Below are positions 20,471-35,696 of a stretch of 36,357 nucleotides of DNA, piece after piece (position 1 is the stretch's first letter; every line of letters begins with the position of its first letter). The DNA is from a virus: the UHGV virus genome UHGV-1353415; one strand, written 5' to 3'. Both the position numbers and the translations under genes were made by a program. A model generated the notes under the pieces. The model ran no database searches. It saw nothing but the letters and a program-made list of their open reading frames with translations, and was not told where the DNA came from.

Positions 20471-20750
20471 TCGCATTCGTTCAAATTGCGTTTACTTCTT
20501 GGCGTTCTGTTCATCCATATCGATATACCATGGGTTGCTTCCCTTGGGCATGTTTAACGACTGCTCGCGATAGTATCTGATGCGCTCCATGAAATACTCG
20601 CGTGAGTGCTCAGGTTGCTCTCATGATACCTGCTCAGTGATAACAGGCATGTTAAGGCGCTCTCTGTACTCCATGCCTGATGCTGCAAGGTCAACGTTTA
20701 CCTTGTTCTGTTTTTCTTTCGATTTCTCGGCGATGTTATGCCTGACATTG

Positions 20751-20993
20751 TCAACCCGCCTCCTTCTGAACATAACGGTTATAAATCAGTCCCTGAGGGC
20801 CATAAGGAAGCGGGATGTGCAACTCCTCTGGTTCAGAAACTATCCATTCCCCGGCCATCTCCGCTGGAGAGGTAATGATAAGTTGTTTGCTAATAAAAGG
20901 ACCACTCCTCTCAACAACAAGCTTACCATCTTCATTAATAAAAGCTTGGATGTCAGGTGTGCTTCCACACTTGGTGATGCAGCGTTTGAACAT
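20751..20993 (-). CDS. hypothetical 80-aa protein (accessory gene with own promoter)
   Basis: ORF MFKRCITKCG..; extended -10 promoter upstream and terminators downstream on the same strand. Confidence 0.5.
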   Translation of the reverse strand: MFKRCITKCGSTPDIQAFINEDGKLVVERSGPFISKQLIITSPAEMAGEWIVSEPEELHIPLPYGPQGLIYNRYVQKEAG

Positions 20994-21121: not shown

Positions 21122-21793
21122 TCACCCATCTTGCTGCGGTGCTACTATTGAAAAGTACTCACACCCTTTAGCCCAAATAGTTTTGATAGTTGTCCAACTG
21201 ACTGGAACCTTGATTTCGATTCTCCCGCTGCCGTCACAAGTTTCGCAATCATCATCACCAAAGCATTCCGGGCAGCTTATAAACGTAGTTTCTGAAAATT
21301 CACCGGATAGCACACCCTTAGCGCCGTTCTCAGCGGTTAGTTTCTTCGGCACTATAACCCAACCATCCGGAGTTACCGGAGAGTTGCCGGGTTCTTTAAT
21401 GTGCAAACGAGGCTCACCATCTTTTGGTTCAGGCCACTGACGTTCCATGTTGATCTTCAATTTATTTTCCATAGCAGCGGTAATTTCAGCATCACTGATA
21501 CCGGCACGGCGCTGTGCATCCCACAACAGGAACTGCATATCAGCCCACTCGCTGAGATCGTCAGGTTCGGCTGCGGCTTCCAGAGCCTCTTTTGAGAGGT
21601 GTTTCAGTGGACCAATGGGGCCAACGCAGCCAAATGTGGAGTCAGACCATTTGGCATGCTCGTGGCGAATCTGTTCGCGTTCCAGTGATGCCAGTGCAAT
21701 TCGTGCCAGTTCCATTTGTTCGCCACGAGTAAGCCCGTTTTCAAGCGGATTTTTAATGAATAATTCGATACGTTCTTTGGTAATAGTGGTCAT
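21122..21793 (-). CDS. MazG-like nucleotide pyrophosphohydrolase-domain protein with C-terminal Cys-rich (zinc-ribbon-like) region
   Basis: 223 aa; N-terminal ..EWADMQFLLWDAQRRAGISDAEITAAMENKL.. MazG-like pattern; C-terminal CPECFGDDDCETCDGSG. Confidence 0.45.
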   Translation of the reverse strand: MTTITKERIELFIKNPLENGLTRGEQMELARIALASLEREQIRHEHAKWSDSTFGCVGPIGPLKHLSKEALEAAAEPDDLSEWADMQFLLWDAQRRAGISDAEITAAMENKLKINMERQWPEPKDGEPRLHIKEPGNSPVTPDGWVIVPKKLTAENGAKGVLSGEFSETTFISCPECFGDDDCETCDGSGRIEIKVPVSWTTIKTIWAKGCEYFSIVAPQQDG

Positions 21794-21795
21794 AG

Positions 21796-21987
21796 CTATT
21801 TCACCTTAATCTCAACATTTCGCAGCTTTAGCTCTACTGGCAGGTCTGACTTTCCTGTTAATGCTAATGCGAGATTTTCTGGGGTAATGAGAGCAGTTAT
21901 TGCTTTCCCCATTGCCAGACGAATAATTATTCGTATTTCGCGATCGTCACATGCTCCTGGTCGAACGATTGATATTTGTCCGTCCAT
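21796..21987 (-). CDS. hypothetical protein
   Basis: 63-aa ORF tightly packed between neighbours. Confidence 0.35.
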   Translation of the reverse strand: MDGQISIVRPGACDDREIRIIIRLAMGKAITALITPENLALALTGKSDLPVELKLRNVEIKVK

Positions 21988-21988
21988 C

Positions 21989-22549
21989 TCACTCTCCTTT
22001 GATGCGAATGCCAGCGGAGCGGATTGCAGCGATGACTTCAGAAACTTTGTATGCCATTACCGTTTGGTAATCCTCGTGGAAATCTGTTCGATGAAGCATG
22101 CTGCTACGTTCCGGGAGCAGTATTTCCCGCGCTTCCAGTTCTGCAATGCGCTTCTCTGCGGCTTCCAGCTCAACACGCAGCTTCCCTACCGTTAGCGCAA
22201 TATCCTCGTTCTCCTGGTCGCGGCGTTTGATGTATTGCTGGTTTCTTTCCCGTTCATCCAGAAGCGCCAGCACGGTAGCTGGACTGGCTGCGGCGATGAA
22301 TTCAGCGTTGGCCTGCTGTTCCATTTGGAAATCTTCATCGAAACCGCTTTCTGGATGCGCTCCTTCAATTCTGCAAATGGGAAGATATCCAACAACTTCA
22401 CGATGAATTAGTGCATCACCAGCATCAAATCTCTCCTCTCCATATTCGAGCGACCACACACCACACGTTGCTTTTTCTGCCTTAGCACGCAGTGCCTGAT
22501 AGTCAATCTTGCTCACTGGTTGCCTCCTTTGCGAAGCTGCTCCGCACAA
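21989..22549 (-). CDS. Ea22/Ead-like protein (start uncertain)
   Basis: Coiled-coil-rich ORF; one of three adjacent paralogue-like genes. Confidence 0.45.
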   Translation of the reverse strand: MCGAASQRRQPVSKIDYQALRAKAEKATCGVWSLEYGEERFDAGDALIHREVVGYLPICRIEGAHPESGFDEDFQMEQQANAEFIAAASPATVLALLDERERNQQYIKRRDQENEDIALTVGKLRVELEAAEKRIAELEAREILLPERSSMLHRTDFHEDYQTVMAYKVSEVIAAIRSAGIRIKGE

Positions 22550-23157
22550 TGCAGCAGGGCGTCCGTCGCTTCTTTCACCGTAACGATGTCGCCATCGTCC
22601 AGCCCGGCAACCGTCGCGTCCTTAACGAACACCGAGCAAAGGTCATTAAACGCCTGCGCACGTACTTCAGCCAGGAGAGCGTCGGTGACCGGAGTTTCAG
22701 GAATCCGTCTCCTCATCCGTTCTATTGCATGATTGAACCCGAAATCTTCAGCAAGAGATACGTCATCCATATTGTCATTGTCGTCCTCAATATCCAGTGG
22801 TTCTGGAATTGCAGACTTTATTACCGCATTCTCCGCTGCCAGCGCCGCACACTTGGCCTCAAGAGCGGCAACCACTTCCTGATGGTCTTTGTACTTAACG
22901 TATGAGCCGGAGATGTCATCACCTTCGGTGTTTAGCCATGCGTCATTGCAATTCACTGCGTAGGTTCTGATGCTCATGCTGATGCTCTCCCGCCCCTGAC
23001 AGACGCCAGGCCAGTCAATAAAGTATCCGCAATGCCTACCCTCAGACGTGCGCGCAGGATAAATGCCGTTATGACCCGGCAAAATATATGCTACCCATTC
23101 ATCTTGCGTTGCCTGTTTCGCCGCCTCGCGCAGTTCTTTATAGTTAATTTCGCTCAC
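22513..23157 (-). CDS. Ea22/Ead-like protein
   Basis: 214 aa; C-terminus ..[25 protein letters not shown] shared with the next paralogue. Confidence 0.5.
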   Translation of the reverse strand: MSEINYKELREAAKQATQDEWVAYILPGHNGIYPARTSEGRHCGYFIDWPGVCQGRESISMSIRTYAVNCNDAWLNTEGDDISGSYVKYKDHQEVVAALEAKCAALAAENAVIKSAIPEPLDIEDDNDNMDDVSLAEDFGFNHAIERMRRRIPETPVTDALLAEVRAQAFNDLCSVFVKDATVAGLDDGDIVTVKEATDALLHCAEQLRKGGNQ

Positions 23158-23648
23158 TGGTTGCCTCCTTTACGAAGCTGGGCAGCAATACTTACGCATA
23201 TCTCTGCGCCTCTAATCAGCCCCGGAACGTTCTTGTTTGGCCCAACTTCACCATCAAAAAAATCAATCATCGCGTTGCGAGCCATATCCACGCCCTGCGC
23301 TCGAACTTCAGCTAGGAAAGCGTCGGTGGCTGGGGTTTCAGTAACATCATCTTCCCATTCGCTAAACTCCTCACGACAAAAGTCATTAAATTCCTTCTCA
23401 GATTGCTTAAGTGAGGTATTTTCAGCAGCCATCTTCGCGCATTTAGCCTCAAGGTTATCAATCGTGATTCCAGCAGAACGACACTCCCGCAACGCCGTTT
23501 CCAGTTTTGATTCAAGTTCACCGAACTTACGGACAAGATATTCAGCGTTTGTTTCGTTAACCTTTAAATCACTTGGGATGCATTTACCTTTCAGAAATCC
23601 ATCCATCTCAATTAGTGTCATTTGTTTCATTTCTTCCCACTCCGCCAC
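23154..23648 (-). CDS. Ea22/Ead-like protein
   Basis: 164 aa; C-terminus ..[25 protein letters not shown]. Confidence 0.5.
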
Positions 23649-23807
23649 ATTGCATTCAGATATTTGTTTTGATTTACTGATGGAAAAGAATTTCTCTTAA
23701 GCAATTCCTCTCTTGATGGCATTGGCTTTACGCGTTGGCGAATAATCATTTCTGCCGGAAGAATGCCGGGATTGTATGCAAGTCCTCTCATGGTAAATTC
23801 CTCTTTG

Positions 23808-24134
23808 TTAATTTATTCGTATGCCTGCTCTTTCTTCATCGAGTTTTTTTAGCTTGTATCGCATAGCTCTTACTGAATAAATTGAGCGGCAGGTTGCAAT
23901 TGCTATTTCTTCTGCGGAGAACTTACCGAAAAGTGATACTTCGGCTCTTGTCCATCGTCTTCCACGAAGTCGGCTAACAATGTCAGCGCCAATCCTTGTT
24001 GCTTTCGCCATTACTGCTTTTTCAGTCCTTTCCAGTTTTTCAGCGATAACTTCAACTGGCATTGTCGCCGCTACTTCGCGCAAGAAATCGACTTCCCATT
24101 TCTCCCATGGAGTCTTTTTCATAGGCGATACCAT
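23808..24134 (-). CDS. hypothetical protein
   Basis: 108-aa ORF in the early-left operon. Confidence 0.4.
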
Positions 24135-24622
24135 TATTTGATAAGAAGTGAAGGTTTCCCAACTTTGAGTTGAGCGCCGGGGATATTTATTCCTGCTTTT
24201 AGTTGGTGTTTGATTGCCAGTTTGTCGGCTTTAATTGTCGTTTCAAACTCAACGTATTCAGGAGGAAGGGCGCTTGAGTCGATGATTTCTACAGTTTCTG
24301 ATGGTTTGCGGATTGTTACCTGGTGAATACCTGCTCGAATCTTTTTCTTGCCAACCATTTCAAGCGATGACGCTATATACGCCATAATGCTGTCAATCTT
24401 ATTTTGAATTACTGCGGCTCGCTCATTCAGTGACTTTGCCTCGTCCTTGAGGCGTTCAGCATAACCAGATTCATTTTTAATAATGGCAAGAAGTTGCTCT
24501 ATTTTATCGGTAAATTCTCCTTCCATGCCTTCTATTGTGTCAGCAATCATCTCTGGCTCTAAATCTGAATCCATCAATTTTGCGTATTCATTGGCAATTT
24601 CATACAGTTTGCTCACTGGCAA
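24134..24622 (-). CDS. Gp157-family protein (Sipho_Gp157-like)
   Basis: 162 aa, helical, immediately downstream of the recombinase as in Gp157/recombinase pairs. Confidence 0.5.
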   Translation of the reverse strand: MPVSKLYEIANEYAKLMDSDLEPEMIADTIEGMEGEFTDKIEQLLAIIKNESGYAERLKDEAKSLNERAAVIQNKIDSIMAYIASSLEMVGKKKIRAGIHQVTIRKPSETVEIIDSSALPPEYVEFETTIKADKLAIKHQLKAGINIPGAQLKVGKPSLLIK

Positions 24623-25502
24623 CCTCCAGTTTCGCTTTGCATTCTGCGTAAATGGCTTGTACGTTCTGCTGCAATTTCATTCCAGCTGTCAGGCGATATG
24701 CTTCTGCAAAATATCGCTTCAAATCATCCATGTTTTCTGCCTGAGCCATTTCATCGCAAAGAAGTTGTGCTTTATCCATTATTTCCTGCTGGCGTTTCCG
24801 TTCATCTTCGCGGATATCTTCCTCTGATTTGTGCGGCATAACTGGTTCCTGATGCATACCTTCATCTTCGTTAAGCAGGTGAATGGCATTATCCAGTCGC
24901 TGGGCTTTAGGCCAGTATTTGCTGGCGCGTTTAACTATTGTTTTACGCGCCATCTCTTCCCAGAATGTTTTCCACGGTCCATTCTTTGCCTTGCTCGTTG
25001 CTTCCACAGCTTTAATTTCTGCCAGACTCATTTCTTCAGTCAGGTAGTCACCATCTGCTGTTTTAACCGTGCAATAACCTCCAACAATAGAGCCTCGCTC
25101 ACCAAATGCGTTGTATTTGTGGGTTGGTGCTGAATCAAGGCCATTTGATTCATAGGTGTCGTTTGAGTACACCAGTTTGCATTGCCCCCACTTAATTGAT
25201 CCTGTCGATTGCGCAAGATGAAGTAATCCCATGTAACTGATATCAAGGCACACCATGCCGTCGCGAGGAACCAGATAAGCCAGTTTGCTGGCCGGGTTTA
25301 AGGTGATGCCGATCGCCGCAACATTGATGATGGCGTTCTGTGCGCTGGTTGGATTTGCCAGTGCTGTTTTAGCCAGGTAATCGTTTTTCTGGAAATACTG
25401 AATTGCAAACTGGCTTTCCTTAGCCCATGTCACCGTCTGTTCAGTCAATGCTCCGCAGAATAACTGCTCCTGCTGTTTAACGAATTCAACGATATTGCTC
25501 AT
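24600..25502 (-). CDS. recT: RecT-family single-strand annealing recombinase
   Basis: 300 aa; ..NGPWKTFWEEMARKTIVKRASKYWP.. matches the RecT signature (GPWVTHWEEMAKKTAIRRLFKYLP in E. coli RecT). Confidence 0.75.
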   Translation of the reverse strand: MSNIVEFVKQQEQLFCGALTEQTVTWAKESQFAIQYFQKNDYLAKTALANPTSAQNAIINVAAIGITLNPASKLAYLVPRDGMVCLDISYMGLLHLAQSTGSIKWGQCKLVYSNDTYESNGLDSAPTHKYNAFGERGSIVGGYCTVKTADGDYLTEEMSLAEIKAVEATSKAKNGPWKTFWEEMARKTIVKRASKYWPKAQRLDNAIHLLNEDEGMHQEPVMPHKSEEDIREDERKRQQEIMDKAQLLCDEMAQAENMDDLKRYFAEAYRLTAGMKLQQNVQAIYAECKAKLEVASEQTV

Positions 25503-35540: not shown

Positions 35541-35615
35541 GGGTCAGTCGTATAAAGGTCATTACGGAAGGCTGTTAACCTTCTTATCGTGGTTCGAGTC
35601 CACGCTGTCCCGCCA
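35541..35615 (+). tRNA. tRNA-like gene, anticodon GUU (Asn-like), imperfect acceptor and D stems
   Basis: Hand-folded cloverleaf: anticodon arm GAAGG-CTGTTAA-CCTTC, T arm CGTGG-TTCGAGT-CCACG, 3' CCA present; one acceptor mismatch. Confidence 0.45.
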
Positions 35616-35620
35616 AACAT

Positions 35621-35696
35621 GCTGGTTTAGCTCTAATGGTAGAGCAGTCGCCTTGTAAGCGAATGGGTAGCGGTTCAAGTCCGTTAACCAGCACCA
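35621..35696 (+). tRNA. tRNA, anticodon UGU (Thr-like)
   Basis: Hand-folded: acceptor GCTGGTT/AACCAGC, D arm GCTC-TAATGGTA-GAGC, anticodon loop CTTGTAA, T arm AGCGG-TTCAAGT-CCGTT, discriminator A, CCA. Confidence 0.6.

Follow-up and report, generated by a model that had tools for sequence, protein, structure and literature searches.

The stretch of DNA analysed here, referred to as the window, is the virus genome UHGV-1353415 with a length of 36,357 nucleotides (nt). By sequence match the window was 100% identical to part of the chromosome of Escherichia coli 2016C04-116. Host genes (wbb, gnd, the his operon and sbcB) occupy bases 1 to approximately 17,400, and the remainder is a lambdoid prophage of the P22/HK620-like type, integrated beside sbcB. 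A short sequence recurs in the pL (early-left) operon of this prophage, at the junctions of three consecutive genes here called A, B and C, and this junction repeat is the subject of the present report. The operon lies on the minus strand and its gene order is recT, Gp157/Gam-like, a small regulator-like gene, DUF2737, A, B, C, a gene of 63 residues and a DUF550 fusion gene. The genes are tightly packed with overlaps of 1, 4 or 17 nt and gaps of 1-16 nt. That A, B and C are all encoded on the minus strand corrects the initial annotation of the array.

The repeated junction

Two copies of the 29-mer GCTCACTGGTTGCCTCCTTT(G/A)CGAAGCTG were found on the minus strand. Copy 1 is located at the junction of genes B and C (22511-22539) and copy 2 at the junction of genes A and B (23152-23180; CAGCTTCGTAAAGGAGGCAACCAGTGAGC in gene sense). 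The copies were identical in 28 of 29 positions, with 20 nt as the longest perfect run common to both. No match was obtained in 100 dinucleotide shuffles of the window, which rules out a chance origin and bears out the recurrence previously noticed at about 22510 and 23150. The 29-mer is the best-kept core of a direct repeat of 81 nt (22466-22546 versus 23107-23187, both on the minus strand, 77% identical). The island around copy 1 consists of the last ~10 codons of B, the 29-mer and the first ~17 codons of C, and that around copy 2 of the last ~10 codons of A, the 29-mer and the first ~17 codons of B.

In gene sense the junction reads CAG CTT CG(C/T) AAA GGA GGC AAC CAG TGA GC and encodes ..QLRKGGNQ and the stop of the upstream gene. 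At both copies a full Shine-Dalgarno (SD) sequence, AAGGAGG, is followed by a 6-nt spacer and a GTG start codon, the last two bases of which open the TGA stop of the upstream gene, generating a 4-nt GTGA overlap. Only three GTG starts occurred in the pL operon, namely those of the two copies and that of the Gp157 look-alike described below. With the SD inside the upstream open reading frame (ORF) and the start overlapping the stop, both copies display a layout of the coupling type, and these features mark the repeat as the site at which translation of the downstream gene is predicted to initiate, superimposed on the last codons of its upstream neighbour. The same arrangement makes it most likely that the downstream gene is translated by coupling to the upstream gene. 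The unit is referred to as the cassette in the following.

Other kinds of element were also considered. Folding z-scores at the cassette were unremarkable (+1.25, −0.30 and +0.37), and an Rfam search of the cassette gave no match at E ≤ 1. A small GCUUC/GGAGC hairpin over the SD was weak and missing from contexts in which the upstream gene is read in the +1 frame, and an RNA element was consequently rejected. No tandem-repeat array was detected, so this candidate was rejected as well, and neither a promoter nor a terminator was found at the junction on the coding strand.

Conservation of the junction DNA

The exact 20-mer AAAGGAGGCAACCAGTGAGC was present in at least 120 IMG/VR contigs. In a survey of 169 unique cassette contexts, in which up to 3 mismatches were allowed, the upstream gene read the cassette as ..RKGGNQ-stop in 119 contexts. 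In approximately 40 contexts it was read in the +1 frame as ..KEATSEQD-stop or ..KEATSERN-stop, with the stop 14 nt inside the downstream gene. Genuine genes were found to use the +1 frame, namely a family of 105 residues starting with MTITKQRVEE.. and a Lar-like zinc-ribbon protein of 77 residues, and the KGGNQ frame is closed in the loci that carry them. The DUF2737 protein ends in ..WRSGKK-stop in the window and in ..MWRKGGNQ-stop in other phages where the gene abuts the cassette. On the downstream side, the six-fold degenerate codons Ser2, Leu9 and Arg10 were represented by the same codon in 96%, 85% and 92% of the sequence pairs, respectively, and the downstream genes turned unrelated a few codons further on. 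The reading of the cassette in two different upstream frames indicates that its nucleotides are conserved and not the encoded tail. What is seen in proteins as a 'conserved C-terminus KGGNQ' is, as far as these alignments show, the downstream initiation region read in frame.

Genes A, B and C

Gene A (23154..23630, minus strand, 158 residues) is of the HK97 gp37 / HK620 hkaH type and matched phrog_614 as well as phrog_492 and phrog_368. Its variable C-terminal domain is followed by the cassette-encoded tail. Gene B (22513..23157, minus strand, 214 residues) is Ead/Ea22-like (Pfam E = 9e-24, 85 bits) with a rare N-domain, and is flanked by both cassette copies in direct orientation. Gene C (21989..22516, minus strand, 175 residues) is an intact ORF and is also Ead/Ea22-like (Pfam E = 1e-30, 107.5 bits). 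B and C passed the gathering threshold of Pfam Ead_Ea22 (PF13935), which is 27 bits, and A was without any Pfam match at E ≤ 0.01. The start of gene C is most likely the GTG at 22516 (MSKIDYQALR.., as in homologues and corresponding to Pfam model position 1-2) and not the TTG at 22549. For gene A the most likely start is the ATG at 23630, in overlap with the stop of DUF2737, and 71 related loci start likewise. The previously assigned limits of B were kept, and the starts of C and A were moved from 22549 to 22516 and from 23648 to 23630, respectively.

The initial annotation regarded the three genes as mutually related Ea22-like paralogues, two of which share a near-identical C-terminus. The shared C-terminus was recovered in proteins A and B, which were 33% identical over 123 residues by BLASTP (E = 5e-12) and have in common the helix end LEAKCAxxAAEN, the segment ETPxTDAxLAEVRAQ and the tail ..QLRKGGNQ. 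Mutual relationship did not extend to the other pairs. The common part of B and C is limited to the first 17 residues, and the two were not significantly similar by BLASTP (E = 0.1), and A and C were unrelated (E = 1.1). At the DNA level, a second direct repeat of 51 nt on the minus strand (22653-22703 in B, ETPVTDALLAEVRAQ, versus 23294-23344 in A, 84% identical) has the same offset as the 81-nt repeat, 641 nt, and is also a mosaic joint. A further intragenic island on the same strand encodes a helix in B (22828-22863, LEAKCAALAAEN) and is 75% identical to its partner in A (23418-23453). The alignments identify A, B and C as a mosaic chain sharing short islands, and not as three diverged duplicates.

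Gene C and lambda Ea22 were 59% identical over the central 76 residues, the coiled-coil region (E = 2e-26), and by this alignment gene C is a true relative of lambda Ea22. The Prokaryotic Genome Annotation Pipeline (PGAP) labels gene C as a pseudogene ('missing N-terminus and C-terminus', 22139-22543). The ORF covers phrog_1667 end to end and starts as its homologues do, and the label is apparently spurious, having arisen from comparison of a mosaic gene to a longer reference. A single-sequence AlphaFold model of B was of low confidence, with a mean predicted local distance difference test score of 51.6 and only the helix of residues 92-116 reaching ~70, and no relatives of solved structure were found by sequence in the PDB.

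Reassorted flanks in related loci

Two sets of related loci, numbered with the prefix L, were compared with the window. The first was picked by the exact 20-mer, and conservation of the core in this set is by construction. For this reason a second, unbiased set of 80 loci was fetched by the DUF2737 protein alone, of which 79 entered the sharing counts and 65 were unique. The loci are not independent samples and nominal p-values therefore overstate significance.

Among 102 unique contexts of ±400 nt in the 20-mer set, 24 clusters of left flanks and 28 clusters of right flanks were found in 68 combinations, and conservation was limited to about −18 to +62 around the 20-mer. The upstream partners included DUF2737, an 80-residue protein and at least 9 different C-terminal domains. 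Downstream, most partners were of the Ead/Ea22 type, with at least 10 different N-domains among them. Others included a PAPS-reductase-domain protein, DUF7739, DUF7446 and 7 genes without a Pfam family, and these diverged directly after GTGAG(C/T).

Loci L074, L025, L039, L117, L098 and L021 displayed a drop in identity from ~100% to random at the cassette, on one side only. In L074 the sequence left of the cassette was random and that to the right was 100% identical to gene B of the window, and the reverse was seen for gene A in L025 and L039. The end of gene B was joined to other genes in L117 and L098, and other genes were joined to gene C in L021 and others. In L112 an A-type end was joined to a C-type start, which is the arrangement of the window minus gene B.

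In the DUF2737 set, 39 of 52 unique Ead/Ea22-type starts used the GTG cassette; the other 13 were ATG starts with other upstream sequences. The 65 unique loci represented 59 distinct four-gene architectures and carried 0, 1 or 2 cassette copies (n = 16, 43 and 6, respectively), so that the copy number varied between loci. The copy-1 island was common to 34-52 of the 79 loci and its flanks to 21 and 7, and the copy-2 island was common to 15-32 and its flanks to 0 and 1-6. The first ~37 codons of gene A (23519-23630) co-occurred with DUF2737 in 77 of 79 loci. Beyond a sharp intragenic joint at 23500-23519, the remainder of the gene A slot ranged from 42 to 301 residues in 37 distinct sizes.

Ends of blocks of at least 95% identity were located within ±30 nt of the cassette in 6.5% of the cases versus 1.8% expected, a 3.6-fold excess. 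Intragenic pile-ups of such ends were found at 22120-22300, at 22640-22700 with 23280-23340, at 22810-22860 with 23420-23450, and at 23500-23519. The divergence points at the cassette were spread from −23 to +64 (~90 nt) without a single fixed bond. The underlying histogram is partly circular, being built from pairs alike at −30 and unlike at +65, and was used only for the spread of positions. Such a spread fits exchange of the homologous kind better than a site-specific one. A short conserved sequence at a gene border, non-homologous alternatives on both sides and an excess of breakpoints, as looked for in a boundary sequence, were thus all present. Module shuffling with diversification of the Ea22 family, as envisaged in the initial annotation, is in line with the reassorted flanks, but the reach of the exchange goes beyond Ea22 to DUF2737, Lar-like, PAPS-reductase-domain, DUF7739 and DUF7446 genes.

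Occurrence of the cassette

The 81-nt island gave 4,901 matches in 2,429 of 5,426 complete E. coli genomes (45%), with up to 11 matches per genome, and it was present in 439 phage records of Escherichia, Stx-converting (Shiga toxin), Salmonella and Shigella phages. Partner sequences are therefore abundant. One cassette copy each was found in the cultured phages HK620 (hkaH|hkaG, one mismatch), mEpX1 and HK140, and none within 4 mismatches in lambda. The exact A-B-C arrangement was found in 1 of the 5,426 E. coli genomes, which is the source genome only. Plasmids of ~90-110 kb annotated with ead/Ea22-like genes accounted for 604 of the 4,901 matches, e.g. NZ_CP127257.1 (98 kb), NZ_OZ369295.1 (106 kb) and NZ_AP042501.1 (98 kb), and these may be phage-plasmids.

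The junction of recT and Gp157

A look-alike of the cassette is located at the recT/Gp157 junction (24611..24627, minus strand; GGAGGTTGCCAGTGAGC), where the Gp157 gene starts with GTG at 24616 and the overlap is 17 nt. The copy (GCTCACTGGCAACCTCC) matched in 14 of 17 positions, and the pattern GCTCACTGGNNNCCTCC leaves the three differing spacer bases open. The layout of SD, spacer, GTG and AGC is the same, and recT reads through it in the +1 frame as ..LEVASEQTV-stop. The related copy that had been reported at about 24605 is accordingly a real look-alike, but no reassortment was seen there. In 93 of the 96 unique contexts found elsewhere its neighbours were again recT and Gp157, and no homology block ended on it; with such a stable pair it was rejected as a third reassorting joint. 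Intermediate spacer variants exist, e.g. GGAGGCTGCCAGTGAGC, and descent of the Gp157 copy from the same cassette is therefore possible.

Other types of junction

A second kind of junction cassette was found at 21985..22009 (minus strand; ATTCGCATCAAAGGAGAGTGAGATG), where ..IRIKGE-stop is read together with an SD AAGGAG and the ATG of the 63-residue gene. Gene C and lambda Ea22 (locus L205, 1048-1075) share the end ..GIRIKGE-stop, encoded by ATCAAAGGAGAGTGAG, which in the window supplies the SD AAGGAG of the 63-residue gene with its ATG one base past the stop. In related loci the ..GIRIKGE-stop tail stands before many different genes. A terminal 'K/RGE motif of unknown significance' has been described in all Ea22 proteins (PMC7093339), and this motif is probably the ribosome-binding site of the next gene read in frame. 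Lambda retains a tail of the ATCAAAGGAGAGTGAG type though GATG has become GATC and no gene follows.

Further recurrent junctions were noticed in loci L125-L203. These were ..EQGGEQK-stop with an ATGA overlap before MTITKQRVEE, ..LRKGVQS-stop or ..LHKGVHS-stop, ..MLKGDKS-stop before MINRTKLEHI, and ..PQEVNRG-stop before MANLQLAVKG. An SD was located inside the last codons at each of these types, and the operon seems to be assembled from several such cassettes.

Interpretation of the repeat

The interpretation we favour, with a probability of roughly 0.7, is that the repeat is a translational-coupling cassette that doubles as a short-homology crossover site, that is, a 'boundary sequence' of the Clark/Botstein type. 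The SD AAGGAGG, the 6-nt spacer and the GTGA overlap would couple the downstream gene to translation of the upstream gene. Upstream genes terminate inside the cassette, in one or the other of two frames. The same island of 20-80 nt, which has many unrelated genes on either side of it and at which identity switches, would constitute a homology patch between heterologous phages and prophages. A crossover within the island, promoted by annealing proteins (RecT here; Erf, Red-beta or Sak4 elsewhere) or by RecA, would swap, add or delete whole genes in frame with their expression signals intact. The A-B-C array would be one such assembly, with B between two direct cassette copies. From the mosaic joints we infer that the repeat may itself be the substrate of recombination. 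The notion of recombination linkers in the initial annotation is in this respect compatible with the joints, but it missed the primary role as an initiation region. Phage Rad52-like recombinases have been reported to drive exchange at short, diverged homologies (PMC3945230), and the RecT-family single-strand annealing protein encoded in the same operon as the array (recT, 24600..25502, minus strand) is a candidate enzyme for such exchange.

Several observations weigh against this interpretation. The support for crossing-over at the cassette is wholly comparative and comes from loci that are not independent, the first set of which was selected by the 20-mer. The cassette holds only ~6-10% of the block ends, so that most joints are elsewhere and the enrichment is modest, and equally sharp pile-ups were seen at other gene borders and at the intragenic islands. 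Red-beta needs a pairing segment of at least 23-27 bp, and RecA one of at least 31-34 bp (PMC3945230). The perfect run of 20 nt between the copies in the window is below the Red-beta minimum, and gene B would therefore be excised only inefficiently from this prophage by direct pop-out. Selection on the initiation region together with counter-selection of gene-breaking recombinants could yield part of the pattern.

The last point leads to an alternative that we regard as unlikely, although it accounts for several of the results. Following the Hendrix model of random illegitimate joints and selection at gene borders, the cassette would be a well-adapted initiation region inherited with the 5′-ends of Ead/Ea22 genes, a passenger and not a recombination substrate. 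Conservation was indeed strongest in the first 12 codons of the downstream gene and not in the spacer, and a quarter of the Ead/Ea22-type starts (13/52) use other initiation regions. The predominance of block ends away from the cassette, the stable recT|Gp157 junction and a perfect run shorter than the published pairing minima are also as this model would have it. The same 20-mer including the non-functional spacer, however, stands before at least 10 downstream genes unrelated to Ead/Ea22, and on the upstream side it closes genes from unrelated families in two frames. An identical stretch of 20-80 nt at every new junction is not what random joining would produce, and identity blocks that end inside a patch of residual homology are the signature of the 'HR trace' (HR, homologous recombination) (PMC3945230).

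That A, B and C arose as local tandem duplicates which diverged in place, with the junction repeat as a remnant of the duplication unit, is very improbable. The two direct repeats with the same 641-nt offset, the C-terminal module common to A and B, and the 17-residue N-terminus and Pfam Ead_Ea22 common to B and C would be expected from such a history. Similarity across all pairs was not found, though, the B-C and A-C comparisons being non-significant by BLASTP, and an arrangement confined to a single E. coli genome out of 5,426 also speaks against it. The DNA between the islands was at random identity (5-7 of 20 positions), and each module was 95-100% identical in other phages with different partners there, which argues for assembly from imported modules and not for divergence in place. 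Hardly credible at all is a repeat targeted by a dedicated site-specific system (integron attC-like, shufflon or invertase) or forming a structured RNA element. Short conserved sites between exchangeable promoter-less genes do resemble integron cassettes in outline, but there was no inverted-repeat or hairpin signal in the folding scores and no Rfam match, no promoter or terminator was found at the site, and the breakpoints were spread over ~90 nt instead of being at one position. By gene annotation, no dedicated recombinase adjoins the A-B-C array.

A bolder version of the interpretation as coupling cassette and crossover site is put forward only tentatively, and we consider it rather doubtful. 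In this version the 20-nt unit of SD, spacer and GTG would be selected as a 'universal adaptor', being at once the coupling signal and the crossover site of a recombinase-general gene-cassette system. If true, temperate enterobacterial phages would insert accessory genes into the pL operon and remove them again by an integron-like logic without an integrase, and the tails KGGNQ, KEATSEQD and, from the sister cassette, K/RGE would be written onto dozens of unrelated proteins.

Relation to known systems

It has been debated since 1978 whether the mosaicism of phage genomes results from homologous exchange at short linkers or from illegitimate joining at random with subsequent selection. The HK620 study is said to have recognised seven boundary sequences, delimiting functional modules of the 'metabolic domain'. 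From boundary sequences as so reported the cassette differs in sitting between single accessory genes inside the ea array, and in coinciding with an SD/start/stop overlap that is read in two frames. It resembles them as a short conserved border sequence with alternative non-homologous flanks and as a proposed focus of homologous recombination, and HK620 itself carries this cassette. The 'boundary sequences' of lambdoid phages are attributed to Susskind & Botstein 1978 and Clark et al. 2001 (J Mol Biol 311:657, the HK620 paper) in PMC3029335. No paper was retrieved in a full-text search with the cassette sequence; Clark et al. 2001 was outside that search.

Gene C resembles lambda ea22 in its GTGAGCGAAATTAAC-type start (of the kind GTG AGC GAA ATT AAC) and in its end GGC ATT CGC ATC AAA GGA GAG TGA (..GIRIKGE-stop). 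In lambda, ea22 is present once, its SD region is different and the cassette is lacking, whereas the window has two Ead/Ea22 members in tandem with the related gene A, which is outside PF13935. The Ea22 variants of Stx phages have a common N-terminus and coiled coil with unrelated C-terminal domains (PMC10834534), and a pro-lysogenic effect was reported only for lambda and Stx-phage Ea22 (PMC7093339, PMC10834534). As with 'HR traces' (PMC3945230), recent blocks end in short residual homology and a RecT-family gene is present in the same operon, but the exchange measured in PMC3945230 was at longer diverged homologies of tens to hundreds of bp, as compared with 20-80 nt here. The 4-nt GTGA overlap at both copies, the SD inside the end of the upstream ORF and the overlap of 14 or 17 nt in +1-frame contexts are shared with coupled ATGA/GTGA gene pairs of phages. 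Ordinary coupling sites are specific to their gene pair, whereas here one identical site is common to dozens of unrelated gene pairs. The likeness to integron cassettes (attC) is by analogy only: promoter-less accessory genes would be exchanged at a short common site inside a single transcription unit, but there is no attC-like structure, dedicated integrase or fixed crossover point.

The boundary-sequence idea and the mosaic build of Ea22 proteins (PMC10834534) are thus already known. Descriptions of this cassette, of its two upstream frames, of its reach beyond Ea22 and of the terminal motifs as ribosome-site read-through were not found. The cassette is a well-documented and not a fundamentally new example of how phage genomes become mosaics. 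Its value is as a concrete and very abundant test case of 20-80 nt, found in almost half of the complete E. coli genomes, frequently in several prophages of the same cell, with many natural combinations on both sides and a RecT gene in the same operon. The cassette can be recoded without protein change, and the question of homologous versus illegitimate exchange is therefore directly testable. For annotation, the motifs KGGNQ and K/RGE at the ends of Ea22-family proteins and their neighbours probably represent the ribosome-binding site of the following gene and not functional peptides, and intact mosaic genes are here labelled as pseudogenes by automatic annotation.

Neighbouring genes and further observations

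Upstream of the array the Gp157/Gam-like gene (24134-24616, minus strand) and the DUF2737 gene (23627..23791, minus strand) belong to the pL operon, the latter being a conserved anchor before the hypervariable array. Directly after gene C follow the 63-residue gene (21796-21987, minus strand) and the DUF550 fusion gene (21122-21793, minus strand), an intact ORF of 223 residues which PGAP breaks into a 'partial' pseudogene and a DUF550 gene. The N-terminal MTTITKERIE.. of this ORF was found to open many different downstream genes in related loci, with the recurrent variants MTTITKERLL, MSAITKERIK and MNSITKERIE, and this segment appears to be another shared 5′-island.

Proteins A, B and C had no match in PADLOC or NCBIfam that would assign them to defence or anti-defence, and a literature search combining Ea22-like with defense gave nothing relevant. 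A gene of 161-164 residues starting with MTGHAAILDM.. was noticed in L145 and L154. It contains a DPPH motif typical of DNA methyltransferases, without a Pfam match at E ≤ 1e-3, and in L145 it ends in ..FMKEGNQ-stop, encoded by the cassette variant ATGAAGGAGGGCAACCAGTGAGC.

A homologue of the DNA polymerase III theta subunit is also located on the prophage (20492-20773 in the window; 15585-15866 in L204), where it is annotated as a pseudogene with an internal stop. According to the annotation, the late region of the prophage contains transfer RNA (tRNA) genes for tRNA-Thr and tRNA-Asn at ~35541-35696 (662-817 in L204), placed between an antiterminator Q-like gene and the holin.

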